The notes: generated from the sequence alone by a model not told the origin. A DNA stretch of 64,000 nucleotides from an uncultured delta proteobacterium (GCA_963803975.1 CAWDOY010000001.1:128001-192000), one strand, 5' to 3'; shown: positions 38,435-60,085, counted from the first letter of the stretch. A program made the numbers and translations.

Positions 38435-39539
38435 TTATTTCTTGTCCCGCAGCTTTTTTGCTTCCTCCCACATCTCGCCGAATGCCTTTTCGGTCTTTTC
38501 GCTCATGACCTGCCAGATGGCAACCGTCTTAAAGTAATTGTTATTGCCGACATTAAACAGGACCTTCTCTTCCGGGGTCACGAGGTCACCCACATTGTTG
38601 ACCACCGGGGAGACGCCCTGCTGCTTGACCACTGCAGCCTGGAATGTTGGGGACAGCTGCAGGTTGATCCACTCCTCACACAGTTTTTTCTTCTGTCCTT
38701 TAGCTGCCTGGGTAATGCACCAGTAGTCGATCCAGGCAGAGCCGCCTTCTTTTGCGGTCGCCAGCTTCCAGTGGCCGCCCTTCTGGTTTGCTTTTACTAC
38801 GGCAAATCCCCATGTGGTTGCCAGGGACAATTGAGGAAACTCATCAGCATTGGCTTCCCCGTCCCAGAGGCTTTTTGCGCCCTTTGCCAGTTCATTCAGT
38901 TTAGGTTGAATTTTGTTTCGGTCAAGCTTATCAATGTCAAAAATGTCCGCGTACTTATAGCCCAGCGCAAGGGCTGTTATCCAGATGTTGACTTTATGGA
39001 AGTTGTTATTGATGGTGTACTTGCCGGCATATTCCGGATTCCAGAAGATATTCCAGCTTGCCGGAGCCTCTTTTATAACGTCAGTGTTGTACGCCAGTCC
39101 ATAGGGGCCGCAGTTGTACGGGAGGCCATAGCGTTTATCCCCGCTGGTGAGCGATTTGTCTGCTTTGAAAAACGGCAGCATGTGTTTGGCATTGGGAATA
39201 TTTTTCATGTCAAGGGGAGATCAGCAGTACGCTGCCTTTGGTGAAGCAGTAGAACCGGGGAGTTTTCGCCATATCAGCCGGGGGTGAAATCATGTCCGCG
39301 GTACCGTTCTTGGCAGCGTTATAAAAATCTTCCTGGCCGGTGGCGTACGTGGTTTTTACCTCCACGTCCATTTTATATTTTTCTTTCACCAGGCTCTTAA
39401 AAGCTTCAATAACCGCCTTGTCGGCATAGCCTTCCCAGCAGGTGATGTTTATGGTTTCCGCTGCTGCGAACGTTGTCCCGGGCAGTCCTGCCAGCGCGAG
39501 CACCACGGCTGCCAGCATCATGAGAATTAAATTTTTCAT
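38435..39539 (-). CDS. Orphan PotD/PotF-like extracellular solute-binding protein (frameshift near 39210)
   Basis: Signal peptide ending TFA; INITCWEGYAD; YGLPYNCGPYGLAYNTD..PASWNIFWNPEYAGK; KEGGSAWIDYW; AAGGAGG RBS. Confidence 0.8.
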
Positions 39540-39718
39540 AGAGTCCTCCTTTAGCGGTTAATAATAATTGAATAGCGGCTCTTTCTGGTGCAGACACCTC
39601 ATGTTTCTGCGTTCACAGAAGAGCATACCCTTGCCTGAAGGCGACAGCCATACTGTTGATGTAATGGCTTATGCATCACCCCCTCTCACTTACGTCACGA
39701 TTGCCATCTTAAGATATA

Positions 39719-40736
39719 TTACCAGCGGCTTGCAATAATGCCGCTGCAAAACGACAGAAGTCCGATACCCAGCAGAACCGGCGAGAGATAAAACCATGCA
39801 GGCTCTGTCGCTTTTGTGTATTCAACGGTCCGCGCATGTTTCACGATGGCTTCCACTACCCGGTCTTCGCACCGTTCTTCACTGACCCGGAAATAGCTGC
39901 CGCCGGTAGCCGCGGCAATCTCCTTCAGCGTATCTTGCTCGATCCGGGTCTTCAGATAGGTACCTTCTTCGTCCGTGTAGTAGTCGACAATAGAGGTGCC
40001 CTCCGCGTCCCGTATGGGAATGAGCACACCCTGTCCCATGCCGGTGCCGATGGTGTATATGAATAATTCCCAGGGCAGCCGCACGCCGGGCCGCCTCAAC
40101 GAGTGCCGACGGATCATCGCTGATGTCCTCGCCGTCCGAAATGAGGATAAGCGCCCGGGCCCGTTTTACGGAAACGTCGGCAAGGAGCGCGACCCCGGTC
40201 ATTATTGCCTGGCCCAGATCGCTTCCGGGTATGGTAATGGTTGTATCATTTAAATGTTTCAGCAGATACTGGCAGTAGCCGTAGTCAGTTGTGGAGGGTA
40301 TTACCTCAACGCCCCTGCTGGCAAACATGAAGACCCCCACACGCTCGCCCCTGAGCGCTGAGAGGATATTCAGCGCGCAGTAGCGGGCGCGGTTGAGCCG
40401 GTTGCGCACGGGAAACAGCTTTTGCCCTTCCGGCGGAATCATTTCATCTTCTGCGAGCATTGATTTTGAGACATCAATGCCGAGCGCGATGTCAATGCCG
40501 CCGCGATTGAAGACGGTCCGCAGGTACTGCAGCTTCGGCTCAGCCAGGCACAGAATCAGTGCTATGAGGCTGATGCTTAAAAACAGGGTTGCTGCCGCAA
40601 AGGAAGCAAGGCTCTTTTTTTTGCCGGCAAACCTGACCAGCCACTGTGATGCAGTCCGATACGAAATCAGGGCGCAGCACACAAACAATGGCAGGATAAG
40701 CAGCAGCCAGATATATTCGGGATTGTCGAGCGCCAT
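39719..40736 (-). CDS. VWA-domain membrane protein, MxaL/BatB-like (frameshift near 40065)
   Basis: P---WLLL BatA-type N-terminus; CLAEP; MIDAS DVSKSM..NRL..PSTTDY..ISDGED; IYTIG-GT; C-terminal TM. Confidence 0.8.
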
Positions 40737-40746
40737 TCTGCACAAC

Positions 40747-40902
40747 CTATCAGGCTGTTGAAAAATACCCATCTGCTTCGTTGCGCTCATTCCTCGTCAT
40801 TGCGACGTACGGTACAGTACGTCGCTTTCTTCAGGATTTCGCGTGCCGTGCGTCTGGATGTTTATGACCAGCCCGGGAGAAAACTACTTTTACAACAACC
40901 CG
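40747..40902. mobile_element. MITE-like element, copy 2, between two operon genes
   Basis: CTATCAGGCTGTTGAAAAA..GACGTAC..GTACGTC..TTTATGACCAGCCCG..TTTTACAACAACCCG; collinear with 3745-3904. Confidence 0.7.
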
Positions 40903-40903
40903 C

Positions 40904-41662
40904 CTATTTTTTGATTTTTGTCTCTACCGGCTCCCCGGGAGCGTAGCCACCCATTTCAGGGATGAGTGTTTCAAGATTTTCTTTCAGCGCCTGGTTTTTT
41001 TCGAGATCGGTTTTGACCGCCTCGATTTTTTTAACGTACTGCTCGCTGTTGAGCAGCTCGAAATTCCAGCGCGGTATATTTTTATCCATGGCAGCTGCCC
41101 CGGTTTTGTCCACCGCGTCAATGGCGGCCTTGTAATCCGAGAGCGCGTCACGTATCACGCCCTGGACTTTGTCGGCGTTTTTTTCTTCATCAAGCATGAC
41201 AAAGGCCTTCAGCAGCCTGGCTGAGGCGGCAACGTTATACAGCTGCCACATAACCTCCGGCCGCAGCTCACCGCCGCCGGTCAGCGTGCTGCTGCAGCGG
41301 TCAAGCATGGCGTCAAGGTGCTCCTTCAGGCGGGCGTTGTAGACAGGGACATCCTGCTCCAGCGCAGCATTATAGCGGCACATCTGGACAGATTTCAGCA
41401 GTGCCAGGGCGCTATGCCACTGCCGCTGCAGGATCCGCAGCTGCACTTCAGGCAGGGTGGCTCCGAGCTTCAGGTATGCGGCCGTTGCCCGGGCGTCATC
41501 GGTTATGGCATCAGCAGCTTCAACCTCCTGCTGAAACGTGCGGCTGTTGCGTTCGCGCTCCCTGAGGCTCTGATAACGGGAGATGTTTATGATGCTGTAC
41601 AGCAGCGACAGTGCGGCCGTGAGCACGGCCCCATACATCATTAGTGTGCGTTTTCCAGTCAT
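40904..41662 (-). CDS. Membrane-anchored helical/TPR-like protein, MxaK/BatC-like
   Basis: N-terminal TM; LYNVA..DYKAAI..RWNFELL resembles MxaK-type 'YN-G..Y-AL..KYNLE'; position between two VWA genes. Confidence 0.5.
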   Translation of the reverse strand: MTGKRTLMMYGAVLTAALSLLYSIINISRYQSLRERERNSRTFQQEVEAADAITDDARATAAYLKLGATLPEVQLRILQRQWHSALALLKSVQMCRYNAALEQDVPVYNARLKEHLDAMLDRCSSTLTGGGELRPEVMWQLYNVAASARLLKAFVMLDEEKNADKVQGVIRDALSDYKAAIDAVDKTGAAAMDKNIPRWNFELLNSEQYVKKIEAVKTDLEKNQALKENLETLIPEMGGYAPGEPVETKIKK

Positions 41663-41668
41663 GGTTGA

Positions 41669-42772
41669 TCAGATTTTTCTGTAATAAGGGTTTATCTGTA
41701 AAAAACAGTATATAAGGAGCGCGCAAAGGGTGCACGCGCCAAGGATCCAGCGCGTATCCTTTTTGCGCTTAACAATTTTTTCCAGGAAGCGGTTCTTTTC
41801 CATGGCATTGATTTCATTGTAAACCTCGGTGATTTTCTGCCTGCTGAAAGTCCGCGGCATGTAGAATATGTGCCCGGCCGTGGATTCTCCCTCAGGCCCT
41901 TCAAGGGCGATACGTATGTCGCTGGTGACGTCTCCCGCCACCACAATAAGATACAGTTTAATCCCGAGCTGCTTGACCAGTGCCACCACGTTGAGAAAAT
42001 TGAGCAGCCCCTTTTTCGCATCTTCCTCACTTTTGCTGGCCTCTATGCGGCCGTCGGTAAACAGCACGATGGCCATTCCCTGCCCGAAATGAATCTTTTT
42101 CAATTTCTCCGGAATGGCTATGGAAGCGCCTGATCTGCCCACCAGCGCGTAGCGCAGGTCGTTTATCTCCTCGTAGGAGGGCTGATCTTCCTCCGGCAGC
42201 AGCATGAAGAATACGCATACGGCAAGCCAGGCAGCGTAGGACGCATTGGTTGCGCCGCCCACGGTCAGCTCCCGGAAAATATAGGAATCAGCCCGCCTGC
42301 TCAACAGCTCAAGCTTTTGCTTCAGAATGCTCTTATCAAAAGCAGGGGGGGCGATTACCCTGGCAAAGCTTGAAAACGCCACAATGCCGATCAGATCATC
42401 CGTGCTGCGCATATCGATAAACGCGCGCGCGCCATCGAGCGCCACATCGCCGAGCGTGATGCGGCCGCCCTCATCGCCGGGCCTTCCCATGGAGCCGGAA
42501 AGATCCTGCACCAGCATGATCCATTTGGATTCAAGAAATGTCCTGTGCCAGTAGCTGGAGTACTGGATGTTGGCTATGGCAAAAACGATGAGCACCATGA
42601 CGAGCCCTGCCAGCATGTCCGCTGCGTACTTTTTTACAGGCCCTGGCTCAAGGCTGCTGCCCAGCATCGCGACCCGCGAAAATCCGGTTTTAACAGACGT
42701 TTTTTTCTGCAGGTACAGCACCGCCGGAACAAGCGCTAACAGGAGCAGTGCCCATGGGTATTGAATGCTCAT
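41669..42772 (-). CDS. VWA-domain membrane protein, MxaC/BatA-like
   Basis: YPWALLLL N-terminus; MIDAS DLSGSM, DLIGIVAFS, GATN, LFTDG; EINAMEK plus C-terminal TM. Confidence 0.8.
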   Translation of the reverse strand: MSIQYPWALLLLALVPAVLYLQKKTSVKTGFSRVAMLGSSLEPGPVKKYAADMLAGLVMVLIVFAIANIQYSSYWHRTFLESKWIMLVQDLSGSMGRPGDEGGRITLGDVALDGARAFIDMRSTDDLIGIVAFSSFARVIAPPAFDKSILKQKLELLSRRADSYIFRELTVGGATNASYAAWLAVCVFFMLLPEEDQPSYEEINDLRYALVGRSGASIAIPEKLKKIHFGQGMAIVLFTDGRIEASKSEEDAKKGLLNFLNVVALVKQLGIKLYLIVVAGDVTSDIRIALEGPEGESTAGHIFYMPRTFSRQKITEVYNEINAMEKNRFLEKIVKRKKDTRWILGACTLCALLIYCFLQINPYYRKI

Positions 42773-42782
42773 AGCGTGTATC

Positions 42783-44380
42783 TTACGCTGCTGCCTGCGA
42801 CCCGGTCAGGTCAAGCAGACGCAGGATTTCCATTCTGATCTGATCGATCTCCGGGCAGCTTTCCTGCTCAAGGGCGACAGCGTTATCAATGGCTGCCAGC
42901 ACCGTCTCCAGGGGGTCAAGATACTGCCCGGGGATATAGTTCCTGACGCTGTCGACAAAGTAGTGCGCGCTGCCGCCGGGCAGTGTACGGCTGTTGCCGT
43001 AGCGAGCCACTACATACTCGCGCAGCAGCGTTCCCGCCTCGTGAGATAGTGCCAGTGGGCGTGCGCGGGGGCAGCCTGCACCAGCACCCGCAGCCGTTCA
43101 GCAAGCAGGTCTTCTCTGGTCCGGAGCGTGAGGAGCCGCTGTTCTTGCCGCTGCCGGAAGAATAGAACAGCTACCCATCCCAGGCACAGGATACACACCA
43201 GCAACCCTCCCGCTGCCTGCCACAGGCTGCTCTGCGCCTGGTAATGCAGGGCGGAAGCCTGATAATCGGGCTGGACAGGCTTTGAGGGCACCAGCAGCCG
43301 GAACTCCTCTTTCACGGCCGGGACCATGGACGCGACCCGGAATGGTATTGGCCGGGTCTCCACAGAGCGAACGGTCTCCCCCGAACAGGCGGGGCAGGTA
43401 TAGCTCACGGTGACCGCCGGAATTACAAATTCGCCGGGGGCGAAGAATTTAATGCGACCCGTGATGATAACCGGGCTTTTGCTGATGACCTTGGTATAAT
43501 CATAGGGGTCAAAGCTGCAGTCAAAGAGCTCCTTTTGAATAGACGCGGGCCGGAGATTGATGTTTGCAATAGAGCTGGGGTCGATGCTCACCCGGTCGGA
43601 AAACAGGATGGTAAAGGTAAACGGGACCGTGTCACCGATGCGCCCGCCACTCATGGCAAGCGCCAGCTGCACTCTGATGGAAGGCTTAAGCTCTACGAGA
43701 TAGGGCCTGGCCCGGAGCACGCTGATATCTTCAGCGAGCAGGTTCAGCGCCTTGAAAAACGGGATTTCGAGAACATTCACCCGGTAGATGTTCTCTTTTT
43801 CATCGTACCCTGCCTGCGCCTGCTTCAGCAGGGCAGCTCTTCGCTCCCGGTCGGCACTTGCCTTCCACTCCAGGTCAAAAATATTGAAAAACGCCCAGGT
43901 TTTATCTTTAAGGATTATGGCCGGGTGAGTATAGAGCACCGCTTCGTCCTGGTTGAGCTGGTTTATGATTTCTTTCAGCTCATCCCGCTTCAGGCCCTCG
44001 CGCAGCCGGAAAAAGCAGGCGTCCTCGGCGATGTTTGCGTCATAAAAATAGTCAATAAGGCTGCTGCGGCTTTTAATGAGCGCTTTTGCTTTCTCCGGGA
44101 TAAACGTGTCGTAGGTGTCCTCAAGTCCGTTGGCCGCACCGGCGTAGCGGGAGTCAAACACGACGGTGAGCCACGTCATGCTGATGTCAGGCATTATTTT
44201 AGTGCTGCCATCATAAAACCAGATGTCGTCGAAGTTGAATGGGGCAGGAGCTTTTTTCTCCAGGGCGTTCGCGCTGAAGCGCGTCACTGCGGCGGCAGGA
44301 GCATGGACTGCCGAAATGCCGAGCGCCACGAGGAGCGTGATACAATATTTTTTTGTTAAGCAGTGTTTCCTACTGTGCAT
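42783..44380 (-). CDS. Exported protein with C-terminal TM, MxaA/BatD-like (frameshift near 43040)
   Basis: Signal peptide; RIGDTV..FFAPGEFVIPAVTVSY..V-S BatD-like beta modules; late TM. The 5' extension to 44521 runs through a repeat. Confidence 0.5.
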
Positions 44381-44425
44381 AGAACTATAGCCGAAGATTA
44401 TTTGTAATTTGTCTGTCTCACCAGT

Positions 44426-44554
44426 ACCCCCTCTGACTCCCCCTTGGCCCATCGGCCGTGAGCAACTCGGCCTTGAACTCGTTGCCGAAAGGCTCAGGGC
44501 CGAACGGCAGGGGGAGAACATTGCCCCTTCTTACCAAGGAGGGGCAGGGGAGGT
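44426..44554. repeat. Nested REP-like palindromic element inside the operon
   Basis: CTCCCCCT..GGGGGAG and CCCCTTCTT-ACC-AAGGAGGGG hairpins enclosing CCGTGAGC..GCTCAGGGCCGAACGG. Confidence 0.55.
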
Positions 44555-44616
44555 CGATAAATGCACTATAATACTTCCTGAGAGATAAATTCTCATATCT
44601 ATATATGTGTAAGAAT

Positions 44617-45494
44617 CTAATAGGTTAACGGAGCCCGTTGCATGAACTCATGTAACTTGTTGGTACGGTCATCTTCAGGCGTTATCGTCACCAGGGGAAT
44701 ACCGGCCCGTAAGAGTCGGTTGCCCAGCGTCTCCCGCCCCTGCGCCATGGTTTCATTATAAGCCTTCCATTTGCTCACATCAAGCAGCCTGGTTGCGCCG
44801 GTTTCATAATCATAGAGCGGCAGCAGGCCCCGGGAGTACGGGGGCAGCGCCACCTCGCTTTCTTCAAGCACCTGCACTGCCTTCACATCGTGTTTGTTGG
44901 TGCCGTGGACCGTGCGGTGGAAGCTGTAGCTGAAGTCAAGCGGATACATGAAGTCCGACAGAATAAACGTCAGGCTTTCGGGGACTTCAGTGACCAGCTT
45001 GGTCAGGGCGATCTGCAGGCTGGTGGAGCGGCACGCCACTGGTTCCGCGCGGGCAATGGCCGCAAGAATCTCCATGAAATGAGACCGGCCCATGCGCGGC
45101 GGAATATAGCTGACGATGTCATCGGCGAACAGGATCAGCCCGCAGCCGTTGTTGCTCATGATGGCGCTGTAGGCAAGCGACACCGCGATGTGCGCCTGGA
45201 GCAAGCTCCTTGCGGCCGAAGCTCACTGATGCTGCTGATGTCGTAGAGCAGCATGACGTTGAAATAGCTTTCGGCAAGGTACTCCCGCACGTAATATTTC
45301 CCGGTCTTTGCTTTTGCCTTCCAGTCGATGTTTTTAAACGGGTCGGTCGGCTCAAGCTCCCGCAGCGACCAGAATTCATAGCCCAGGCCTTTGAAGGTGC
45401 TTTCCCAGTCACCGGGAAACGGCGCGTTCACCCGGTGATTGATAAATATATCAAGCAGCTCTTTTTTTGACAGCAGGCTCTGTTCTGTTTTCAT
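44617..45494 (-). CDS. DUF58 domain protein, MxaS-like (frameshift near 45220)
   Basis: KGLGYEFWSLRE..DPFKNIDWKA.AKTG..VREY; FILSDF; directly follows moxR. Confidence 0.85.
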
Positions 45495-45502
45495 AGTGCC
45501 CG

Positions 45503-46526
45503 TCAGTACGGCCGTATGGTCTGCAGTATCTCCTGCACCAGCATGTCGGAGGTTATCTGCTGGGAAAGGGCACTGCTGTTGAGCAGGATGCGGTGCCTGA
45601 GGACGTGAACTGCACAGGTGGCCACATCATCAAAGGTGACAAAATCCCGCTGCCGACAGAAGGCATAGGCCTTTGCCAGCGCCAGCAGCGACTCTGTCGC
45701 ACGCGGCGAGGCCCCGAGCCGGATATACTGGTGCACCTCGCTGGCTGCAGCCTGCTCTTTATAGGTTTCATTCGGCCGGGTGGCAATGCAGATATTTAAA
45801 ATGTAGTTCATGACCTTCCGGCCCACCCGCACCCGGTCATGGATGAGCTGCTGGATGGCAATAATATCCTCAAGGCTGAAAACCTTCTGCACCGCTGCTT
45901 TCAGCTGGTCGAAATTGGAATTTTTTCTCTGCATGCAGCTCAAACTCCTCATCCTTGTGCGGATACCCGACATCATATTTTACCATGAACCGGTCAACCT
46001 GGGATTCCGCCAGGGGATAGGTGCCGATCTGCTCAATCGGGTTCTGGGTCGCCAGCACCATGAAGGGATTGGGTATCGCATAGCTCAGGCATTCGATGGT
46101 TACTTCCTTTTCCTGCATCGCCTGCAGCAGCGCGGACTGAACCTTCGGCGATGCGCGGTTTATTTCGTCGGCGAGAAAAATGTTGCAGAAAACGGGGCCG
46201 AAGTAAAAATCAAATTTCCTGTCCTTCTCATTCCACACCATGGTGCCGGTTATGTCGCTGGGCATCTTGTCCGGGGTGAACTGGAAGCGTTTGAAATTGC
46301 CGCTGATCACTTTTGCAAAGGTTTCAACAACAAGGCTCTTTGCCAGGCCCGGGACCCCCTCCAGCAGTATATGGCCCTTTGCCAGAAGCGCATACAGTAT
46401 GAGGTTGATCATCTCCTCCTGGCCGATCACAACTTTTGCGATCTCAGCTTTTACCTGCTGGATCTGTTGTGCATACCGGGTGAACTGCTCTTTCGTGCCG
46501 TCACCCGCTGTCACCTGATTCTGCAT
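45503..46526 (-). CDS. moxR: MoxR-family AAA+ ATPase, MxaR-like (frameshift near 45915)
   Basis: HILLEGVPGLAKS, RFQFTPD, LADEINRA, ATQNPIEQIGTYPL.E.Q.DRF, GASPRA, VLRHRI. Confidence 0.92.
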
Positions 46527-46578
46527 ATGAAAGGTCCCCGTTGTTACGGCATCAGCATACCAGCCATGCTACATATAT

Positions 46579-47610
46579 TCAAACCGCTTGCGGTACTTTA
46601 TAATCAAGATAGAGAAAAAACGGGCCGCCCAGCAGCGACGTGACAATCCCGATCTTCAGGTCAACCTTAACGATAAGCCGGACAAACAGATCGGCATAGA
46701 TAATAAAGACTGCCGCCAGCAGCCCGGCAAAGAAAACGAGCTTCCGGTTGTCCGGGCCGATCAGGCTGCGCATAATGTGCGGGGCAATCAGCCCGACAAA
46801 ACCGATAACTCCCGATACGGCAATCGCGCCCCCGGTCTCGATGGATGAAAATAAGAGGAGCGCATTGCGTGCCTGCTTGATATTGACGCCCAGATTGGAC
46901 GCTGTTTCTTCTCCGAGCATGAGGATATTCAAATCCCTGACATAGAACAGGGTCCCTGCCAGCGCTACGACCGTGGTGGGGAATACTATGCTCACATGCT
47001 CCCAGGAGCGGTTGTTCAGATCGCCCATGAGCCAGGTCACGATCACCCGGCCCACATCAAACTCCCTGGTGCTCAGGGTGATGACAAAGGAGGTCAGTGC
47101 GCCGAATACTAAATTGAGCGCTATCCCCGCGAGCAGCAGCGTTGATACCGATGTCTGCCCCCGGGAGGTCGCGATGGCAAAGACCATGACCAGCGTCAAC
47201 ACGGCAAACAGTATGGCGGCAAGGGGCAGGGCAAACAGCGAATGGGCTGCCAGGCCGGCATAGATCGCCAGCACCGCGCCCAGCGCCGCCCCTGAGTCAA
47301 TACCCATAACCCCCGGGCTTGCCATGGGGTTCTTGAAGATTCCCTGCATGATGGTGCCGGCGCCGCCGAGAGAAAATCCCACCAGAAGCGCAACCAGGAA
47401 GCGGGGCAGCCTGCCGTCCCAGACGATGGCGGCTTCAACGTCGCTGACGCTTCCTGTATAGAACCCGAGTTTTGCAAGAATAATTTTAAATACATCTATA
47501 ATGGCAATGGGCCACTCCCCTGACGTCAGGGTAAAAAAACCCCCCAGTACAATGAGCCCTGACAATGCGCCGGCCAGCAGCGCTTCTGAAGCCTTAGGGC
47601 TGTTGCGCAT
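46579..47610 (-). CDS. BtuC/FecCD-family ABC permease
   Basis: RLPR, QGIFKNPMASP, WLMGDL, LGEETASNLGV, GVIGFVGLIAPH, GGPFFL. Confidence 0.9.
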   Translation of the reverse strand: MRNSPKASEALLAGALSGLIVLGGFFTLTSGEWPIAIIDVFKIILAKLGFYTGSVSDVEAAIVWDGRLPRFLVALLVGFSLGGAGTIMQGIFKNPMASPGVMGIDSGAALGAVLAIYAGLAAHSLFALPLAAILFAVLTLVMVFAIATSRGQTSVSTLLLAGIALNLVFGALTSFVITLSTREFDVGRVIVTWLMGDLNNRSWEHVSIVFPTTVVALAGTLFYVRDLNILMLGEETASNLGVNIKQARNALLLFSSIETGGAIAVSGVIGFVGLIAPHIMRSLIGPDNRKLVFFAGLLAAVFIIYADLFVRLIVKVDLKIGIVTSLLGGPFFLYLDYKVPQAV

Positions 47611-48643
47611 ACAAAACTCCGGCAAGCAGATCGGCGCTTAAGAGCATGAACTGGGAATCAACCCGCAGATACACCCCGGGAACATAATACACTTTTCCCT
47701 GTTTATGGCCTGCGCAAAGGAGAGAACCTTATTGGACATCAGCAGCTCTCTCAGCTTGCTTCCCCGGGGAACGATAATAACATCGGGGTTCCATTTAAGC
47801 AGTGTTTCATTATCAATCTGCGACCAGGATTTAATGCCCTGCTCAGCCCCGACATTAACGGCGCCGATGATGCTGCAGATGGAATTAAAGTTTGATGACC
47901 GGCCCGGGATATACCCGCCTTCATCGTAATAGAGCACACGAACCGGCTTGTTGCCACCGGGGATGTCTGACTTCAGTGCCGCGATTTTTGCATCGATTAG
48001 ATTAACCAGTGCCTGCGCATTGGCTCTCTTCACCGACAATTTTTCCGATGAGCAGGATCTGCTCTTTAATGGACTCAATTGATACCAAAATAGCCGAGGT
48101 CAAAACAGGGGATCTTCGCCTGTCTGAGCTTTTCTTTAAAATCAGCGCCGGAATAAAAAACGGTAAAGACCAGGTCCGGCTGAAAGCCGATAACCAGCTC
48201 TGTCTGTTTTGATTTAAAAATCGGGCCCCGCTGCCGTACTTCATCTGCAATAAAGCTGAATTCAGGATCAGCGGAAAATTCATTGAAGGCTACCAGCCGC
48301 TCACGCGGGCAGATTGCCCATAATATCTCTGCAACGCCCACCGCGTGGGGAATTATGCGCACGGGCTGCTTCGCCAGGGTGAACGCTTTTTCTTCCTGCG
48401 GAAGGCATCAGTCTTAAAATCATACACCTTGAAGGTATAGGGTATGGTGCGCGGCCAGCTGTTGGTTTGCGCTTCACCCCTGACCAGGCTCAGCGCTTTT
48501 TTTAAATCATTCATGGGCAGGGGAGGGGAACCGTCCGGACTGCGCGCTGCCCCGCCGCGGGAGAGCAGCAGGCAGCAGAGACAGCAGGCCAGGTTACTGA
48601 GAAGCTTCGCGCACGCTGCAGACCACCGACGACTGTTATGCAT
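47594..48643 (-). CDS. BtuF/FecB-family cobalamin/iron substrate-binding protein (about 3 frameshifts)
   Basis: Joined ORFs 48353-48670, 48075-48362 and 47638-48078: RII....AEILWAI, E.VIGFQPDLV, ETLLKWNPDVII. Confidence 0.7.
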
Positions 48644-49400
48644 AAAAATCGAGAAAAGTGGCGCTGTCATTTTTGATATTCCCGTACCTGCACATCAAAT
48701 ACCTGTTTAATATTCTCCGGGGAGAACGCATCCTGCGGCGAGCCGGTATAAAATATTCTTCCCGCGATGAATAATTGATATCGTATCGCAGAATTTTCTG
48801 CGCAAGGTTCAGATCGTGCATGGTTACCAGGATGGTTTTGCCCTGCGCCCGCAGTTCGAACAGAATGTTCATAATTGCCAGCGTGTGCTTGATATCAAGC
48901 TCGGCGGTCGGCTCATCCAGCAGTATCAGGGATGCTTCCGTTGCCAGGGCGCGGGCGATTATCGCCAGCTGGCCTTCTCCGCCGGACAGCTCATTGATGA
49001 TTCGGTCCTTTAGTGCATACATAGCGGTCTGCTGCAATGCCCGCTCGATTATTTCCCGGTCCTTCTGCTGCACCCCTTCAAAGCGTCCCAGATGCGGGTT
49101 GCGCCCCATGGAAACAATATCAAACACCGAGATGGGAAAACTGACCGCGGTGTTTTGCGGCACCAGCGTAACCAGCCTGCTCAGCTCTTTTCTCGGTATG
49201 GTGCGGTAGTTTTTGCCCTCTATCAGGATGGTGCCGGACTGCGGCTCCCATATCCGGCAGACATTTTTCAGCAGGGTTGATTTGCCGGAGCCGTTCGGGC
49301 CGATGATGCCGTGAATTTTGCAGGGTTCAAAATGGACTGAAACCCCGTCAAGGATTTTTTTATCTTCAATTGAAAAATGGATATCCTGTATTGTGAGCAT
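48636..49400 (-). CDS. BtuD/FecE-family ABC ATP-binding protein (3' frameshifts)
   Basis: GPNGSGKSTLL, VSMGRNPH, ELSGGE, LLDEPT..LD, MHDLNLA. Confidence 0.9.
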   Translation of the reverse strand: MLTIQDIHFSIEDKKILDGVSVHFEPCKIHGIIGPNGSGKSTLLKNVCRIWEPQSGTILIEGKNYRTIPRKELSRLVTLVPQNTAVSFPISVFDIVSMGRNPHLGRFEGVQQKDREIIERALQQTAMYALKDRIINELSGGEGQLAIIARALATEASLILLDEPTAELDIKHTLAIMNILFELRAQGKTILVTMHDLNLAQKILRYDINYSSREEYFIPARRRMRSPRRILNRYLMCRYGNIKNDSATFLDFYA

Positions 49401-49412
49401 ACGGCAACAGTC

Positions 49413-50196
49413 CTATGAGCACAGCCTGAATTTGTATGCAACCGGCAGAATAAATTTTGCTACCACGACACAGAAGAAACCAAAATATACGGATATGCTT
49501 ATTGCCGCTGCTGTCAGGTCCGGGGAGAATTCAGCGGTTATGCCCAGTGCCGCCCAGATGAAAATCTGCCCCAGCAGCAGCTGAAAGTTCTGGGCCAGGG
49601 TATATATTACCCAGAAGTTCTGCGAGAGCTTGAAAATTTCGCCCCTGCGGATTTTTATCTCAATGATTTTAAACCAGGTCCGGCCCTCAACAATCTGGGA
49701 CGATCCGTCGCACACATGGTGCAGCAGATACAGTACTACCAGCAGGTGGGGAGCAAAAGAGAGGCTCTGAAAGAAGTATTTAAAAACCGGCGGAAAGCAC
49801 AGCAGCAGGCAGACTGCCCCCAGGGACTGGCCGATGGCGATTGCCCACCTGCGCCCTGATTAAGCGGGGAATCTGCAGGCGCGGGTCCTGCGCGACCTCC
49901 AGCTGATCTATGAATTCCGATGTGTAGGTGCTCGAAATCATGGTTATCCCCGGATAGGCGTATTTCACCAGCACCCCCAGGATTGCAGCAACTTTCAGCT
50001 CCTGCTCGGCCATTAAAAACATGGTATAGAGAATCACGCCGTCAAGGATGTTTTTCCCGATAGTATAGCAGATATTGCCCGCCTCGCCATAGCGATAAAA
50101 GGGCACTGAGATAAGGGCTGAAATATATAATTTTATTTTTTGCGGTAAAGCCGGGGGTGTGTAGCCGGGGTATGTTGTTGTCTGGTCTTTTTCCAT
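49413..50196 (-). CDS. Hypothetical ~6-TM membrane protein (start uncertain; frameshift near 49845)
   Basis: ORFs 49780-50280 and 49413-49715 join into one hydrophobic multi-pass protein. Confidence 0.5.
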
Positions 50197-50274
50197 CTGC
50201 AGAAGCTCGGCAATGGCTCTGACCTGTTTTGAAGAATCCCGGTGGTGCTGTCTATTCGGGGAAGAAACAAACGA

Positions 50275-50315
50275 AAGCACAAAAGGGGCACTGACTGCAT
50301 GCCCCTTTTGTGCTT
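50275..50315 (-). terminator. Strong hairpin/terminator after eutBC
   Basis: Perfect 16-bp inverted repeat AAGCACAAAAGGGGCA / TGCCCCTTTTGTGCTT. Confidence 0.75.
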
Positions 50316-50321
50316 CAAGGA

Positions 50322-52609
50322 TTAACTTGCCTGCATTATTTCTTTGAGCAGTTTTACCGTCATTTTAGCAGCCTCTTCAGGCTTTGTCGCCTGGTTGGAG
50401 ATGCCGCACACGACTTTCACGATATTGTGGTCGCACTTCTTTTCTGCCCAGACTGTTGCCTTGGGCGCTGCGATATACACGGAGAATGCATTCTGGCCGG
50501 TGCCCGGCCGTTCGCCAATTATATGAATAACAGCTTTGTTCTTATTCGGGTCTGATTTTCCGAACAGAATATCGCCCGCCATGTATACCCGGCCCGCACG
50601 CGGCCGCTGGTACAACAATGTTCTGCTCCCCAACGGTCAGCCTGCATCTTTGAGCTCTTTTCTCACCTCGTAATATATGGCATGAGATGTCCCTGAGCCA
50701 TGATTGAATTGGCGTTTAACCCGTCAGAGATAACAATCTGCACATCAGGATCTTTCCCTGCCCATGAATCCCGCAGCTTTTCAAGGGTTGCCACTGACTG
50801 CTCGTTCAGTTGTTCACCGGTAGTGGGACGGACAATGTAGTTTTCGCGGTCCTTCGACAGGGTAGCAAGCTGAACTGCATTGGGAATGGTCTTTATAAAC
50901 TCCGGGGTAAACTCCGCCCAGATAGCTTTTTTGGCATCAGCGTAGAGTTCACGTATCCTCTTGTCCAGTCCCGGATTCAGATCCCAGATATTTTTACCAT
51001 ATCCGGAGGCCAGAGGTACTTTGTTTCCGGTCTCAAGCCACGTATTATAAATAGCATCAAACTTCTGTTTGCCTTCAGCATATATTTCCTGTTCAGAGCG
51101 CTTGTCGCCTTTAGCTGCGCAGAACTGATAATATACCCAGATGGGATCTCCGAAGTGCTTGGTGGGTTTGCCGTTCTTGTCAATAACCTGGATGCGCTTG
51201 AAGAATTCCCACATGGCATCATTTACCTTGAAGCCGAATTTGTTGCGCAGGCGCACATGGTCCTGGTATGAGGTAGTCAGGTAGCTCAGCATCGGGTCAT
51301 TCCTGGTAGGAAGAGCCATGAGATAGGCCGGGTTTGCCGGCATAATCTGATCCTGGCACCACTGCAAGGTCATCAAGGCTTACTGACATGTGCAGGGTGG
51401 AGCAGATATCAAGGCCGGAAGTGAGCCCCTGCAGTTTGCCCATTAATATATCTTCAAGGCAGCAGCGCACCAGCTGTTCCTTGGTTCTGAACACCTCCGG
51501 GCCGATGAAACCGGCAACATCATTAAAATGAGTATAGGCGCCCTGCGGCTGGACTTCAGCAAGGGTCTGTTTCAGCCCGCGGGCAAACCCGTACTTGCGG
51601 GATTCAAGCACCACCATGTCCACGCCTTCAGCAGCGCCGTTGGTGAAATCAGAGCCCTGGCCGGTCTCGTAATACAGCCCGTATCGTCTGATCCTTGCGG
51701 GCTTTTGCATGATTGACCATCTTTTCAACGGTCACGTCAAACACCTTGTTTGCCGCGTCAGTTCCTGCCAGGCTCTGGAAGAAAAAATCAACCAGTTCCG
51801 GCTTCTCTTTAAAAAGTTCCCCCTGCACGTCAACATGGGATAACACGCACCAGGGAACAATCCCCTTTAATTTGAACGCATCGACAACATCCTTAAGGGC
51901 TGCTTCTACTTTTGCAGTTTGTTCTTTTGTCCCGTCCACCGGGTTAGTCCCGAGCACTAAATCGCCTACCGCGTAGGAGAATCCATTAAGTGTCTGCCAG
52001 ATAATTTCCTCGGGATCATCAGTGGGGGAATTGGGCTGAATGCGGGCGCTCAGATAGCCTTTGGCCCCGATCTTGGTGCCGGGCAGCGGATTGAAGATTT
52101 TCTTGTCTACCGCAATCAGCTCCTGATTGCTCATGAGTTTGGGCATACAGCCAACCACCTCGCTGTTCATGCCGTACATGACTGCCTTGATTTCAGCTTC
52201 AGGCTTGGTCAGGAGATAGGTTTTCATCTTCCCCATGGTCCAGTCCTTAATTTTTTCGTACTGGGCCGAATCAGTTGCTTGGGCGATAAATTTGTAAAGA
52301 TTGTCATTAAGCAGGGGGTGCTCCGTGATATCCTTGATTTTGGTATTAGCTAAAAGCTTACGGGCATTTTCCCTGCTGGTATTATCGTCGGCAGCATACG
52401 CCGATTGCCTGGTCACCCTCTTTAAAGGCATTTGCCGCACCGATTACCTGCTGATACAGTGTCTGGTCAAAAGAACCCTTAACCCGTTCAATATATTTGA
52501 AGACATCTTCACCGGGTTTGACGTCCTTAATGGCGATGGCACTGCTGTACGTGCTGAAAGCAAAAACCCCGAGGGCAATCATCGCTGTGATCGCAATAAA
52601 TCGTTTCAT
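50322..52609 (-). CDS. eutB: Fused ethanolamine ammonia-lyase EutB-EutC with N-terminal Sec-type signal peptide (4-5 frameshifts)
   Basis: EutB motifs AANAFKEGD, SARIQPN, GDLVLGTNP, CVLSHV, FQSLAG, YYETGQGS, GFIGPE, LEDILMGKL, GLDIC, DPMLSYLTT. EutC motifs DRENYIVRP, DVQIVISDGL, IGERPG. ORF 50663-51376 spans the B/C junction with no stop. Confidence 0.9.
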
Positions 52610-52718
52610 ACGCTGATCCCTCCCATATAAAATAGGTTATTCAGGTTGTTTGCGTCCTGCTCGGTAAAACCCAAGACTCAATTTTTATAATTATTTGAGC
52701 ATTTACTTCTTGCGCAAG

Positions 52719-52752
52719 TAAACAACCCCGCCTTTTCAGGCGGGGTTGTTTA
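52719..52752. terminator. Bidirectional terminator between the porin gene and eutBC
   Basis: TAAACAACCCCGCC-ttttca-GGCGGGGTTGTTTA perfect stem. Confidence 0.75.
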
Positions 52753-52789
52753 GCTGTACGCTTCTTTCAAATCATAGTTGTCAGTCAGC

Positions 52790-53615
52790 TCAGAAAGCCA
52801 CTTTAAGAGTAACGCCGCCATAGACCCAGCTGGAATTTGTATTTGAGTCGGGGCCGCGTGTTATAGCATTGAAACTGCTCTGTCTGATATTGGTCTGCGC
52901 TTTATTGCTCATCGGACATGAGTAGTTAATTGACGGCACGATCGTTACAAAGCTGTTGAGCGGGATGTTGTATGCCGCCCAGATGTTGGCGTCGTGCATG
53001 GCCTCGTAGTCGTAACTCGTGCTGTTGATGCTCATGTAGCTGATCCATCCGCCCACATCCAGAGACTGTTCTCCGCAGTAACCGAAGATTTCTCGTTTGC
53101 CCGTGGAAAAAGAGTGGGATACCCCTAAATTAATATACCAGCGGTCTCCGCCCAGGGCTATTTCCCGGTATATGCTGAGGGTCGGCTTGAGCAGCACATC
53201 AAGGCCCAGGGTCGTAAACAGTTCCTGGCTGGCTCTGGTGATACGTGGAGGGATCGATATCGTAATAGATGTAGCCGAAGGTGTAGTTCAGTTTTTTCCA
53301 GCTGTTGCTGTAGGTGAGTATCCAGTCTGTTTCCCACCATTTATTCTGGGAATCTTCCCCCGGGTTCCCCTTATATGCGGTATCAAGATCGCCCCACATA
53401 TTCATGCTGAACCCCTTGTAGGAAACGGTAATGGAGGGGAACATCACCAGGCTGTCCTTGCTCAGTTCATACCCTCTCCACACATACTTTGAATAGAATG
53501 TCCAGGAGAGGTTGCAGGTAGGCCGCTCCTCCTTGTCCTCCTGGGCAAGCACCGCGGTGCTGAACGAAAACACCATGAGGCCAAGCATAATTGTTAGAAG
53601 AATTTTTTTACCCAT
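52790..53615 (-). CDS. Outer-membrane beta-barrel protein, TorF-like putative porin (frameshift near 53225)
   Basis: Signal peptide; SKYVWRGYEL, ETDWILTY, GYIYY; alternating aromatic strands; C-terminal YGGVTLKVAF. Confidence 0.7.
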
Positions 53616-53705
53616 TATGTACTCCTTTCATTTAGTTTTTAAGTTCTAATATCTCGCCAGTTTTCATTACATTTTCATGTGATACCTTCAACCGTACTAT
53701 CAATT

Positions 53706-54158
53706 TTATTCTGCGGCTTCAGGGGCTACAATTCTTGTGCCGCTAAAGAAGAAAAAAATGGGATCCGTGGGAACGCCCTCCCCTTTCAGCAATGCAAGCC
53801 CCACTCCTAACATGGTCTTACCTTCACTAAGTATCGCGCCGGTAAAATACATGGAGAGGCTTGAAGCAGCTATGCCGCCAACTTCCACATCGTAAGCGCT
53901 ATAGGTAGTAAGAAAGTATGTGTTTGGATCCAAGACATACGTGTAATATGATCCTTTGCCAGCCCCAAGCGAAAGCAGGAACACAGTGTCTGTTTGAAAG
54001 GTAGCATCTGCATTGAGGTTTATACCGACTGATGTCATAATCGACAACCGATACACGCTTCCTGTCAGCACTGTTTGAGCGTTTGCGGCTACTGAAGAAA
54101 TGCCGATTAACAGAACCGCGCAAAAGCAAATAGCTAATAGTTTTTGTTTTTTCAACAT
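53706..54158 (-). CDS. Hypothetical secreted beta-rich protein
   Basis: AAGGAGG RBS; signal peptide ending ANA; 150 aa. Confidence 0.6.
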   Translation of the reverse strand: MLKKQKLLAICFCAVLLIGISSVAANAQTVLTGSVYRLSIMTSVGINLNADATFQTDTVFLLSLGAGKGSYYTYVLDPNTYFLTTYSAYDVEVGGIAASSLSMYFTGAILSEGKTMLGVGLALLKGEGVPTDPIFFFFSGTRIVAPEAAE

Positions 54159-54208
54159 AGTGTCCTCCTTTTTGTTTGGTTTGTTAACAGTTCTTTACCC
54201 CTTGTTTT

Positions 54209-54670
54209 TTACTCTACAACTATTGTGCCCGTGAACTCCTTGCCTGCTTCGATTGCTCCCTTCTGCCCCGCGGCTTTCATTTGGGAAGGCCGCGTAACTG
54301 TATACTTGTATGTTCCCCTTTCAATAAAGCAGATGCTTGCCACCGCACCGAATTTAACCTTTTTGGCAATAAAAGCGCCCTTTGAATCCTTGTTGAAATT
54401 GACCGGGTTCTCGCAGGCAGTGGTTATCTCTTTATCGGGAAATATTATTGACACCGGTGCCATGGCTTCGTTGAGCCAGATTACCGTGGTCCCGAGATTG
54501 ACCTTCAGGGTTTCAGGACTAATGCCGTTGGGATAGTTAACCTTGATGACCTGGTGCCCCGCAAGTGTCTTTTCCTGGGCTGCGCCTTCCTCTTTTGCCA
54601 TGGCAGTATTGAAAGGAATCAGGATTAAACCAATACAGGCAACTAATAATAAAACCTTTATTACTTTCAT
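54209..54670 (-). CDS. Secreted cupredoxin-fold-like protein lacking the type-1 Cu motif
   Basis: GGAGG RBS; signal ending AMA; SPETLKVNLGTTVIWLN..F.ERGTYKY..GTIVVE. Confidence 0.65.
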   Translation of the reverse strand: MKVIKVLLLVACIGLILIPFNTAMAKEEGAAQEKTLAGHQVIKVNYPNGISPETLKVNLGTTVIWLNEAMAPVSIIFPDKEITTACENPVNFNKDSKGAFIAKKVKFGAVASICFIERGTYKYTVTRPSQMKAAGQKGAIEAGKEFTGTIVVE

Positions 54671-55200
54671 AGATACCTCCGTGCTGATTATTTTGTTTTT
54701 GAGCTGCAAGAAAAACTTCCCCTATATAGCGTCTCTTTTAAAAAGAGTTATAAAAATTATGTTGTTCGGAAAAAAACAAGATGCCGCCGTTAGTACTTTA
54801 TAGTAGCTGTAACAGCTCAGTATAAATAGTAGAGCAGCATCCTATAGCAGACGCAATCTTTGTCTCCTCAGTTAATAACCATGATGGTTTTGCCAACCAT
54901 CCCCAACCCCCTGTTGCCGGAGGATTAATTTATTAAGTTTAACTAAACACCTTGATTTTATAATGTCAAGCGTTTTTTTTATTAAATAATATAATATTTC
55001 CGCTCTACTTGTAGCCCTACGATAAGAGTTTTCAAGAAAAAATTAATTTTATATTTATAGTAATATTAATTTATTTTGCAAATAATGTTTATTGCACGGG
55101 TGATATTTAATTGACTGTTAAGGACTTTTGATATAAGGGTACACATAATTATAATGTACCGGGTGGTGTGCAGAGAACAACTTTTTACAGGGGGTCTTGC

Positions 55201-56031: not shown

Positions 56032-56037
56032 TGTTTT

Positions 56038-59764: not shown

Positions 59765-59914
59765 CGTATGCGATAGTCTGTACAAACCAACGCAAAAGTT
59801 CCGACCCTGAACTCTCTCGCCTGGTGCCTTTTCTTCCTTCGGGTCACGGGTCACGTGCCACGAGTCGCGTATTTCAATATCTATTGACACCGTCAAACTA
59901 ATGGAGTATTAATT

Positions 59915-60085
59915 TTAACATAAAGGTACCTGCTATGGTTTAAAAGGGAAGATGGTGAGAATCCATCATGGTCCCGCCGCTGTGATCGGGGACGAAATCC
60001 ACGTAATGCCACTGTCCTGAGATGAATCGGGATGGGAAGGTTTGGAGAGTAGGATGATCCGAAAGTCAGAAGACCTGCCTTTATG
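59915..60085 (+). promoter_or_regulatory. Cobalamin (AdoCbl) riboswitch
   Basis: AGGT..TAAAAGGGAA-GATGGTGAGAATCCATC-..CCCGCCGCTGTGA..GCCACTG..GGGAAGG..AAGTCAGAAGACCTGCC B12-box; TTGACA at 59884; upstream of cobU. Confidence 0.95.

Follow-up and report, generated by a model that had tools for sequence, protein, structure and literature searches.

Canonical ethanolamine ammonia-lyases (EAL), such as those of E. coli, Salmonella, and Listeria (PDB 3abo and 2qez), consist of a EutB TIM-barrel and a EutC domain and are located in the cytoplasm or in microcompartments (BMC), with EutA as their reactivase. Among exported corrinoid enzymes, reductive dehalogenases are loaded with a nonadenosylated corrinoid in the cytoplasm before the Tat route carries them to the outer face of the inner membrane. 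MoxR and VWA proteins are found together in the Bat (aerotolerance) operon of Bacteroides and Leptospira, MoxR-DUF58-BatA-BatB-BatC-BatD. In the passages considered here of an account of methanol dehydrogenase (MDH), MxaR, MxaS, and MxaA as well as MxaC, MxaK, and MxaL are all required for Ca2+ incorporation into this Sec-exported enzyme, and MxaJ, which resembles solute-binding proteins, is required for its loading with PQQ (PMC12276312).

Fused eutBC genes and their neighborhood were already described in 2012 for Pelobacter (Syntrophotalea) carbinolicus, which grows on ethanolamine. According to the passages of that account considered here, there are two fused copies, eutBC1 and eutBC2, and no eutA; the clusters include an adjacent solute-binding protein, a multi-TM protein, and a protein of no assigned role. 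Only one of the copies is accompanied by VWFA proteins, an ATPase, and an ABC transporter akin to those for corrinoids, and cobalamin synthesis genes and an aldehyde:ferredoxin oxidoreductase lie nearby. The same passages, in which we found no mention of a EutBC signal peptide, interpret the accessory genes as a means of matching the uptake of cobalamin to the use of ethanolamine (PMC3543383).

The window analyzed here, a stretch of 64,000 nucleotides from an uncultured delta proteobacterium, shares with those clusters, as portrayed in the passages, the solute-binding protein, multi-TM protein, protein of no assigned role, ABC transporter, VWFA proteins, and ATPase, with cobalamin synthesis genes and an aldehyde:ferredoxin oxidoreductase nearby, and its genome likewise has fused eutBC twice and no eutA. 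Pfam searches with ORF pieces of the window and tblastn with intact relatives bore out an initial count of fifteen co-oriented minus-strand genes, spanning positions 38435 to 54709. The gene order is cupredoxin-like protein, secreted 150-aa protein, outer-membrane beta-barrel, EutB-EutC, TM260, ABC ATPase, Peripla_BP_2, FecCD, MoxR (AAA_3), DUF58, BatD530, BatA/VWA, P251, VWA, and SBP_bac_6.

The fused EutB-EutC protein (50322 to 52609) is predicted to be adenosylcobamide dependent, with ethanolamine as its substrate. Pfam EutB and EutC were matched on all of its pieces, which are interrupted by four frame changes and small compensating indels. Three pieces scored 244, 135, and 66 bits for EutB (PF06751; cut-off 25), and EutC (PF05985; cut-off 25.8) scored 55 and 39 bits, compared with 118 to 126 bits in relatives. 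Solved EAL structures were matched with E values of 1e-64 to 1e-67 for EutB and 4e-12 for EutC. An intact relative (L026) exceeded the NCBIfam EutB cut-off (NF011649, 643.7 versus 554) and missed that of the EutC equivalog (NF003971, 92.9 versus 230). R160, Q162, N193, E287, and D362, which we take to be the substrate-binding residues of E. coli EutB (3abo_A), are conserved in the alignment, and their counterparts show no variation among 32 sequences.

The canonical cytoplasmic or BMC setting with EutA does not describe this enzyme. Unlike canonical EAL, it is a single fused chain with an N-terminal signal of the Sec/Tat kind, and the lack of eutA, BMC shell, and eutH genes reported for the window extends to the entire genome. 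Searches of this genome, which is 98% complete, found no BMC shell genes, no EutH, no PduO-type adenosyltransferase, and no true EutA, only a weak match over 44 positions. Genes for cytoplasmic cobamide synthesis and the CobA adenosyltransferase adjoin the locus, behind a riboswitch.

The N-terminus of the window EutBC is a Sec-type signal (MKRFIAITAMIALGVFAFSTYSSA followed by IAIK), with positive residues, then a hydrophobic core, then a small-x-small site. The signal noted in the window proved to be conserved over the fused family: by a regular-expression motif rule and inspection by eye, the N-termini in the best 80 homologous loci were Tat-type in 46, Sec-type in 29, and without a signal in 5, of which 2 are truncated at a contig end. 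Because 75 of 80 loci have a Tat- or Sec-type N-terminus, the fused EutB-EutC family as a whole looks exported; we found no paper stating this. Both EutBC copies in the genome are Sec-type, and TatC is encoded, although the clade of the window EutBC lacks the RR motif. This is a further difference from the Tat-exported reductive dehalogenases. Since it bears a secretion signal, the window EutBC probably works outside the cytoplasm.

What is new here is a ten-gene module comprised of TM260, a BtuCDF-like ABC system, MoxR, DUF58, BatD530, a VWA protein, P251, and a second VWA protein. TM260 (49413 to 50196; one frame break), located by tblastn with relatives, is a 260-aa multipass membrane protein of an uncharacterized family with no Pfam or NCBIfam match. 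It has conserved HHxCDGS and EGRxWFK motifs and an all-helical AF2 model (pLDDT 65), and among the best 80 loci it occurs only beside Sec-type eutBC (17 of 17).

The ABC system has the permease, binding protein, and ATPase of a BtuCDF importer, but all of its subunits fall under the curated cut-offs, and corrinoid specificity is a best guess. The best NCBIfam match of the type II (BtuD/FecE-like) ATPase (48636 to 49400; Pfam ABC_tran) is "corrinoid ABC transporter ATPase" (229.2 bits; cut-off 537), and that of the FecCD/BtuC-like permease (46579 to 47625; Pfam FecCD, E 9e-90) is BtuC (279.9 bits; cut-off 461). The Peripla_BP_2 protein (47603 to 48670; Pfam and tblastn; at least three frame breaks) belongs to the BtuF/heme/siderophore class, has a signal peptide in relatives, and scored 18.3 bits against the BtuF model (cut-off 234). 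Its nearest solved relatives bind heme or siderophores, with no BtuF chain among them at E ≤ 0.01. No second FecCD copy was found in the genome at E < 1e-8, making this its only FecCD/BP_2 system. Cobalamin riboswitch control of BtuCDF is common, not universal; no such riboswitch was found upstream of the module or its transporter in the window or the loci of seven relatives (0 of 8).

MoxR, DUF58, and two VWA membrane proteins with intact motifs share one operon. The MoxR-class AAA+ ATPase (45503 to 46526; AAA_3 and AAA_lid_2; one frame break) and the VWA-like DUF58 protein in the MxaS position (44617 to 45506; Pfam DUF58; one frame break) are soluble and without a signal. Walker A and B are intact in 8 of 8 MoxR proteins, as is DxSxS in 11 of 11 DUF58 relatives. 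The first VWA protein (41669 to 42772; VWA_2, 27.4 bits; MIDAS DLSGS) has TM segments and a BatA-like N-terminus that scores under the cut-offs (PF07584, 22.5 versus 25.9 bits; NF047508, 45.4 versus 380). The second (39719 to 40790; VWA_2 and VWA; one frame break) has MIDAS DVSKS. The MIDAS is intact in 10 of 10 and 11 of 11 sequences, the 10 being relatives of the first VWA protein.

BatD530 (42783 to 44521; tblastn with relatives; one frame break) is a bitopic protein of 503 to 530 aa. Its parts are a signal, a periplasmic domain (alpha/beta plus Ig-like), a single TM helix, and a helical domain in the cytoplasm. Its AF2 model (pLDDT 78) has only generic fold matches, and none of its 152 homologues is named. 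P251 (40904 to 41662; 252 aa) is N-terminally anchored, occupies the MxaK position, and is conserved in 10 of the best 80 loci. These two proteins had been labeled "MxaA/BatD-like" and "MxaK-like", names that found no sequence support, as neither has a Pfam or NCBIfam match. In comparisons with Pfam and NCBIfam models and with folds, no relationship of BatD530, P251, or TM260 to MxaA, MxaK, BatD (no match to BatD530 at E ≤ 1), or any named family was detected.

The likeness to the Mxa system is one of arrangement. Both have the order MoxR, DUF58, membrane protein, VWA, small anchored protein, and VWA beside a Sec-exported cofactor enzyme, and both sets include an SBP-like protein. However, the target here is a cobamide radical enzyme rather than a PQQ/Ca2+ enzyme, the module adds an ABC importer and TM260, and BatD530 and P251 lack detectable homology to named families. 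MoxR, DUF58, and BatA-type VWA membrane proteins are also common to the Bat operon, but the BatA and BatD domains are under cut-off or unmatched in the window, and the module is tied to eutBC, whereas a generic MoxR-DUF58-BatA-VWA operon lies separately on another contig (C45) of the same genome. The MoxR/VWA set of the module is a divergent paralogue of that operon (43%, 35%, and 30% identity). The module is thus a dedicated copy.

Linkage of the module to EutBC follows the signal type. Among 57 assessable EutBC copies, 16 were Sec-type with the module and 7 Sec-type without it, compared with 0 Tat-type with and 34 Tat-type without. The full module adjoins eutBC in 12 of the best 80 loci, Sec-type every time, and four further full modules stand beside second Sec-type EutBC copies. 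Starting at EutBC and up to and including the second VWA gene, gene order is kept where EutBC identity is about 60% and BatD530 identity 26 to 29%. BatD530 was present in 8 of 11 EutB-positive versus 0 of 30 EutB-negative genomes of the class. Among 401 genomes sampled from the phylum (19 with fused EutBC, 13 with canonical EutB, and 369 without EutB), it was found in 10, 0, and 1, respectively, and TM260 in 12, 0, and 3, so that both family-specific markers are nearly confined to fused-EutBC genomes. The preliminary description made its proposal depend on ABC and MoxR/DUF58/VWA genes being conserved beside signal-bearing eutBC elsewhere; they are, in other genomes and families, and the proposal therefore survived that test. 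All 16 module-linked copies fall within one well-supported 31-row set of the EutBC tree, with only two independent Sec/Tat pairs, neither informative. A single event may therefore underlie the pairing of Sec signal and module, and because the module-bearing copies may share one origin, this pairing may represent retention rather than repeated gain. BatD530 was absent from two (G044 and G051) of the six genomes tested for the seven Sec-type copies without an adjacent module.

The explanation we tentatively favor, with slightly less than even confidence, is that EutBC is exported via Sec and active in the periplasm, where the module would insert or exchange its cobamide. Sec substrates cross the membrane unfolded, and thus the cobamide would have to enter on the far side. 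It counts against this reading that the periplasm is without ATP and that we know of no AdoCbl exporter. The module would carry corrinoid over the inner membrane, and the cofactor would be put in or swapped by a MoxR-powered, membrane-spanning VWA complex, in the way that MxaRSACKL and MxaJ mature periplasmic MDH. Loading or exchange of the cofactor by MoxR/VWA was proposed from the start; it draws on this analogy and on the co-inheritance described above.

Ethanolamine would enter by the small outer-membrane beta-barrel (52790 to 53633; one frame break), a putative Gcw_chp/MipA-OmpV-like protein with a signal peptide and a C-terminal F. The barrel itself has no Pfam match; its atlas feature score to Gcw_chp/MipA clusters, in which 12 to 38% of members have PF09694, is 0.98. 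It adjoins eutBC in 28 of the best 80 loci, of which 22 are Sec-type, 5 Tat-type, and 1 cut. Capture of ethanolamine may fall to an orphan binding protein resembling PotD (SBP_bac_6, 38435 to 39542; Pfam and tblastn; one frame break). This protein adjoins eutBC in 18 of the best 80 loci (15 Sec, 3 Tat), has a signal in 15 of 15 relatives, and has polyamine binders among its PDB relatives. Ammonia would be set free outside the cytoplasm, and acetaldehyde would reach tungsten-type aldehyde:ferredoxin oxidoreductases in the cytoplasm by inward diffusion. A role of the periplasm in place of a BMC, keeping acetaldehyde from the cytoplasm, found no support: recurrent neighbors are aldehyde:ferredoxin oxidoreductases without signals (6 of 6), an Ech-like hydrogenase, and Fe-ADH, and acetaldehyde is evidently consumed inside the cell.

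Two further genes are peripheral. The secreted cupredoxin-like protein (54209 to 54709; 166 aa) has a weak plastocyanin match (24.6 bits; cut-off 87.85), homologues upstream only in the closest relatives, L026 and L035, and at least 11 paralogous matches in its own genome. The secreted 150-aa protein (53706 to 54158), without a family match, occurs only in L025, L026, and L035.

It is possible, but somewhat unlikely, that EutBC is exported while the module is an ordinary uptake system for corrinoid (or heme or siderophores) plus a Bat-like envelope system, co-located for co-regulation and without direct action on EutBC. Type II ABC importers are, to our knowledge, known only as importers. Uptake is also the reading given for P. 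carbinolicus in the passages cited above, Tat-type homologues do without the module, and one event may account for the link between module and Sec signal. Furthermore, the hairpins reported to flank eutBC are genuine (z -5.5 and -5.7), keep their positions in two relatives, and would uncouple eutBC from the module. By RNA folding, a GC-rich hairpin then a U-run lie 3' of the barrel gene (52700 to 52750; fold of 52650 to 52795, -49.3 kcal/mol, z -5.46; equivalent in L026), and a terminator-like hairpin with an 18-bp stem lies directly 3' of eutBC (50274 to 50316; -31.5 kcal/mol, z -5.68; position kept in L026 and L034), between it and the module. However, BatD530 and TM260 belong to families of limited spread, nearly confined to genomes with fused EutBC, a generic Bat-like operon is already present, and cobamide synthesis is encoded next door. 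The missing B12 riboswitch (8 of 8 loci) and the gene order kept across deep divergence also argue against it.

It is considerably more doubtful that the hydrophobic N-terminus is an uncleaved anchor or is unused for export, with the enzyme facing the cytoplasm and MoxR/DUF58/VWA serving as a EutA-like reactivase. MoxR/VWA pairs of the CbbQO type remodel cytoplasmic enzymes, and the soluble MoxR and DUF58, the missing eutA, and the cytoplasmic oxidoreductase partners would fit such a role. Yet the positive residues before the hydrophobic core place the body of EutBC outside by the positive-inside rule, a small-x-small site follows the core, and 46 of 80 homologues have canonical twin-arginine motifs at the same place. 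The barrel carries a signal too, as do the Peripla_BP_2 and SBP_bac_6 proteins and BatD530 on its large domain. A reading of the locus as a pseudogene cluster in decay is highly improbable, even though its roughly 16 kb contain at least 14 frame breaks, at indels outside long homopolymers. Elsewhere in the genome the rate is similar, with 27 breaks in 51.3 kb that affect 15 of 40 genes, NAD-dependent DNA ligase among them, versus 10 in 12.8 kb at the locus by the same method. A second eutBC copy is also broken, a compensating indel turns up at each break site in contigs of four other runs, and an intact 777-aa EutBC orthologue exists in the same genus; the breaks are assembly errors that occur genome-wide, not gene decay.

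Periplasmic loading or exchange of cobamide thus remains our preferred, though tentative, reading of the module, which may supply or insert the cofactor of an exported lyase outside the cytoplasm.

Within the window, which spans 128001-192000 of contig C1, the long reading frames of the locus at positions 38435-54709 all lie on the minus strand. The source genome (G000) comprises 57 contigs and is 98% complete. Gene order was derived from Pfam searches of the open reading frame pieces, combined with tblastn searches with the intact proteins of relatives, and this analysis confirmed the count of fifteen co-oriented minus-strand genes made in the preliminary description. In order, the genes encode a 166-aa cupredoxin-like protein, a secreted protein of 150 aa, an outer-membrane barrel, an EutB-EutC fusion (EutBC), a multi-pass membrane protein of 260 aa (TM260), an ABC ATPase, a Peripla_BP_2 binding protein, an FecCD permease, MoxR (AAA_3), a DUF58 protein, a protein of 503-530 aa designated BatD530, a BatA-like VWA protein, an anchored protein of 252 aa (P251), a second VWA protein, and an SBP_bac_6 (PotD-like) binding protein. 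For simplicity the ten genes from TM260 to the second VWA gene are referred to as the module.

Several other features accompany the locus. The cupredoxin-like protein (54209-54709) has at least 11 paralogous matches of 34-45% identity on nine other contigs. A divergent pair on the plus strand (55168-56433), encoding a 287-aa lipoprotein-like protein and a class III cytochrome c, is kept beside the eutBC locus in four relatives (L025, L026, L035, and L094). The gap between the P251 gene and the second VWA gene holds an intergenic repeat of about 155 bp (40747-40903) with a 9-bp-stem hairpin inside it; copies of 72-92% identity occur on most contigs (many dozens of blastn matches, an approximate tally), and the repeat looks like a MITE/REP-like element. 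A second short repeat (about 44447-44510; ca. 45-64 bp, 87-93% identity) is common to contigs C8, C25, C26, C31, C52, and C54.

The intact EutBC of a relative scored 643.7 against the NCBIfam EutB model, passing the cut-off of 554, and matched the E. coli and Listeria EutB proteins at E values of 1e-64 to 1e-67 and EutC at 4e-12. Residues R160, Q162, N193, E287, and D362, which we take to be the substrate-binding residues of E. coli EutB, were retained in the alignment with that protein and were invariant across 32 family members. The window EutBC begins with MKRFIAITAMIALGVFAFSTYSSA, then IAIKDVKPGEDVF, and the N-termini of the second copy in the same genome (contig C48) and of all relatives within the class are alike. 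A scan in which each species was represented by one genome yielded 314 loci with relatives. When the N-termini of the best 80 of these 314 were read and sorted by our own simple motif rule, 46 carried a twin-arginine (Tat-type) signal, 29 a Sec-like signal, and 5 neither. Two of these five were cut by a contig end, L097 and L102 were truly signal-less, and L100 was odd. Tat-type copies were found in metagenome-assembled genomes labelled Syntrophaceae, Syntrophobacteraceae, and Desulfobacterales and also in Rhizobium, Ensifer, Sinorhizobium, and Mesorhizobium isolates. With 46 Tat-type and 29 Sec-type N-termini among these 80, the fused family as a whole looks exported, and the predicted export of EutBC is well supported by sequence.

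A literature search on exported ethanolamine ammonia-lyase, with most subscription journals outside its coverage, found no statement of EutBC export. Its only yield was the P. carbinolicus genome paper (PMC3543383). The accessible text of this paper describes a duplicated fused eutBC and, with it, an SBP, multi-TM proteins, uncharacterised proteins, an ATPase, VWFA proteins, and an ABC transporter that has corrinoid transporters as relatives. According to that text there is no eutA, and cobalamin genes and an aldehyde:ferredoxin oxidoreductase (AOR) lie nearby; the genes are interpreted there as serving cobalamin uptake, and the EutBC signal is not mentioned in it. As in P. carbinolicus, there are two eutBC copies in G000.

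The eutBC locus contains at least 14 frame changes, and one rival explanation is that it is a decaying pseudogene cluster. Break rates were compared with tblastn probes that were intact open reading frames of other genomes: the locus had 10 breaks in 12.8 kb, affecting 8 of 12 genes, and the rest of the genome had 27 breaks in 51.3 kb, affecting 15 of 40 genes, that for the NAD-dependent DNA ligase among them. The second eutBC copy, 77% identical to the window copy in DNA, is broken too. The same-genus orthologue is 777 aa long with its frame intact. Over 50300-52650, contigs from four sequencing runs (three of DNA, one of an RNA library) differed from the window by single-base indels at 52394-52397, 51686/51688, 51363, and 50586-50671, which are the window's frame-break sites. 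A pseudogene cluster was rejected because of the similar break rate elsewhere and the indels at the break sites. The genome-wide breaks, the intact orthologue, and the indels in other runs argue instead for consensus (assembly) errors, and we read the genes as functional. Conserved genes throughout the genome have about one frame break per 2 kb, and gene calls need frameshift-aware reading. The RNA-library contigs (X16) on the gene do not demonstrate transcription of this genome's own eutBC copy.

The order barrel, EutBC, TM260, ABC ATPase, Peripla_BP_2, FecCD, MoxR, DUF58, BatD530, VWA, P251, VWA was kept in relatives of other genera and families, down to about 60% EutBC identity and 26-29% BatD530 identity. 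Among the best 80 of 314 loci, the full module adjoined eutBC in 12 and TM260 adjoined it in 17, and every one of these copies was Sec-type (12/12 and 17/17). The preliminary description had proposed scoring signal-bearing eutBC for ABC and MoxR-DUF58-VWA neighbours, and the expected co-occurrence held for one signal class: among 57 assessable copies, the module lay beside 16 of 23 Sec-type versus none of 34 Tat-type copies. Seven Sec-type copies had enough flank yet no module. Six genomes from these seven cases were searched for BatD530 elsewhere, and four had it, each within a complete module adjoining a second Sec-type eutBC. This pattern of two copies, one with the module, parallels G000 and P. 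carbinolicus. BatD530 was found in one of nine Tat-type genomes searched, where the module was cut by a contig end. In genome tallies, in which kin are not independent, BatD530 occurred at the class level in 8 genomes, all among the 11 EutB-positive ones (0/30 EutB-negative). In a second tally, across 401 evenly sampled genomes of the phylum, BatD530 was present in 10 of the 19 where EutBC is fused, none of the 13 where EutB is canonical, and 1 of the 369 where EutB is absent; the corresponding figures for TM260 were 12/19, 0/13, and 3/369.

A separate generic MoxR-DUF58-BatA-VWA operon is present on contig C45, and therefore the window set is an extra, specialised copy. BLASTP of BatD530 against its positional counterpart in the generic operon found nothing. 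At E<1e-8, no FecCD/Peripla_BP_2 system other than that of the module was detected in the genome. In the EutBC tree, signal type requires just three changes, and all 16 module-linked copies fall within one well-supported set of 31 rows. Two independent Sec/Tat pairs were found, but module state was the same within both, making neither informative. The link between module and Sec-type signal therefore fits one origin followed by long retention, and these sequence comparisons cannot show repeated co-gain. Co-inheritance gives good support to a conserved, real system with a dedicated accessory module.

Signals were present on the Peripla_BP_2 and SBP_bac_6 proteins, the barrel, and BatD530 and absent from MoxR and DUF58. 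MoxR has Walker A and B motifs. The VWA proteins contain membrane helices, and their MIDAS motifs are intact. The barrel is similar to Gcw_chp/MipA proteins. The best matches of the ABC parts were corrinoid models, all under cut-off, and the nearest solved relatives of the Peripla_BP_2 protein bind heme or siderophores. No cobalamin riboswitch was found ahead of the transporter in the window and seven relatives. The BatD530 model (pLDDT 78) has a periplasmic alpha/beta and Ig-like part, a single transmembrane helix, and a helical domain on the cytoplasmic side. Its 152 homologues are all unnamed and none is distant; fold matches were generic (FtsX-ECD/ACT-like, Ig/macroglobulin-like, and HEPN-like; Z of at most 9.2), and no fold identity was accepted.

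TM260 matched nothing in Pfam or NCBIfam, and its AF2 model (pLDDT 65) gave no Foldseek match at E<=0.001. Neither of two leads gave an identity: Atlas scores were no higher than 0.88-0.89, to flippase fragments, and the best VIA-wide Z of 8.4, to MFS half-domains, was within the range of helical-bundle noise. Searching 1.84 billion representatives with a profile gave 28 matches, among them proteins of 570-875 aa whose middle resembles TM260. A TM260-like domain forms the middle (approximately residues 190-560) of proteins of 473-875 aa (P0132-P0147); Pfam domains were found in 0 of 14 of these long proteins, which are an uncharacterised membrane-protein family.

The Tat route moves folded proteins and the Sec route unfolded chains. 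Therefore, Tat-type EutBC can bind its cofactor in the cytoplasm, whereas the Sec-type clade would have to load cobamide in the periplasm, and the module occurs only with the Sec-type clade. In methanol dehydrogenase (MDH), the closest precedent, a subunit is Sec-exported, the SBP-like MxaJ is needed for PQQ loading, and Ca2+ requires MxaR, S, A, C, K, and L, according to PMC12276312. From the restriction to the Sec-type clade and the MDH precedent we infer, by analogy, that the module may supply cobamide and insert or exchange it. A more specific possibility, which we consider quite improbable, is a cobamide cycle across the inner membrane. Apo-EutBC would be exported via Sec and take up adenosylcobamide in the periplasm. 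Damaged cofactor would be pried out by a membrane-spanning BatD530/VWA complex driven by the cytoplasmic MoxR ATPase, a step that would stand in for the missing EutA reactivase. The spent corrinoid would be caught by the BtuF-like protein, imported by the FecCD/ABC system, and re-adenosylated by CobA, and TM260 would bring fresh cofactor back to the periplasm.

A cobalamin riboswitch (59907-60096, plus strand; 118 bits) heads a cobamide synthesis operon (G000:C1:188000-205000, L105) encoding CobU, a radical-SAM protein, a ThiC-like protein, CobT, CobS, CobD, CbiD, CbiG/H-type methylases, the CobA adenosyltransferase, and CobQ. The radical-SAM and ThiC-like genes possibly serve anaerobic benzimidazole synthesis. 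In one relative (L114) a cobalamin riboswitch adjoins the module, and the AOR gene that follows the module is immediately preceded by a Moco/Wco riboswitch (14347-14465), consistent with an enzyme that uses a tungsten or molybdenum cofactor.

The idea in the preliminary description of the periplasm as a means to keep acetaldehyde from the cytoplasm is at odds with the neighbouring genes: all six neighbour AORs are without a signal, and further neighbours encode an Ech-like hydrogenase and an Fe-ADH. These genes point to aldehyde use inside the cell. The AOR family of G000 is unusually large: by tblastn, two AOR queries matched at over 20 sites spread across many contigs. The Sec-type eutBC on contig C48 (L016, G000:C48:42000-62000) has on one side an AOR that carries a ferredoxin domain at its N-terminus and on the other an Ech/Mbh-like membrane hydrogenase, a layout also seen for copy 1 of another genome (G029); the C48 arrangement suggests conversion of ethanolamine to acetate with H2 release.

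To our knowledge, all characterised adenosylcobalamin radical enzymes are cytoplasmic or microcompartment-bound, within reach of ATP-dependent reactivases and adenosyltransferases. A family predicted to be exported, Tat-dependent in most lineages and Sec-dependent here, challenges this picture and raises the question of how a fragile, ATP-made cofactor is delivered to, and kept up on, an enzyme outside the cytoplasm. The conserved module of the Sec-type clade is a candidate answer, and the existence of cultured carriers makes the question testable. Such carriers include Syntrophotalea carbinolica and Geomonas sp. RF6, the latter with a homologue of BatD530. MoxR/VWA systems are, as far as we know, widespread and mostly without known clients, and a new client class would inform that field. 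If the cobamide cycle is real, EutBC would be the first adenosylcobalamin radical enzyme of the periplasm to have a dedicated machine for its maintenance across the envelope.
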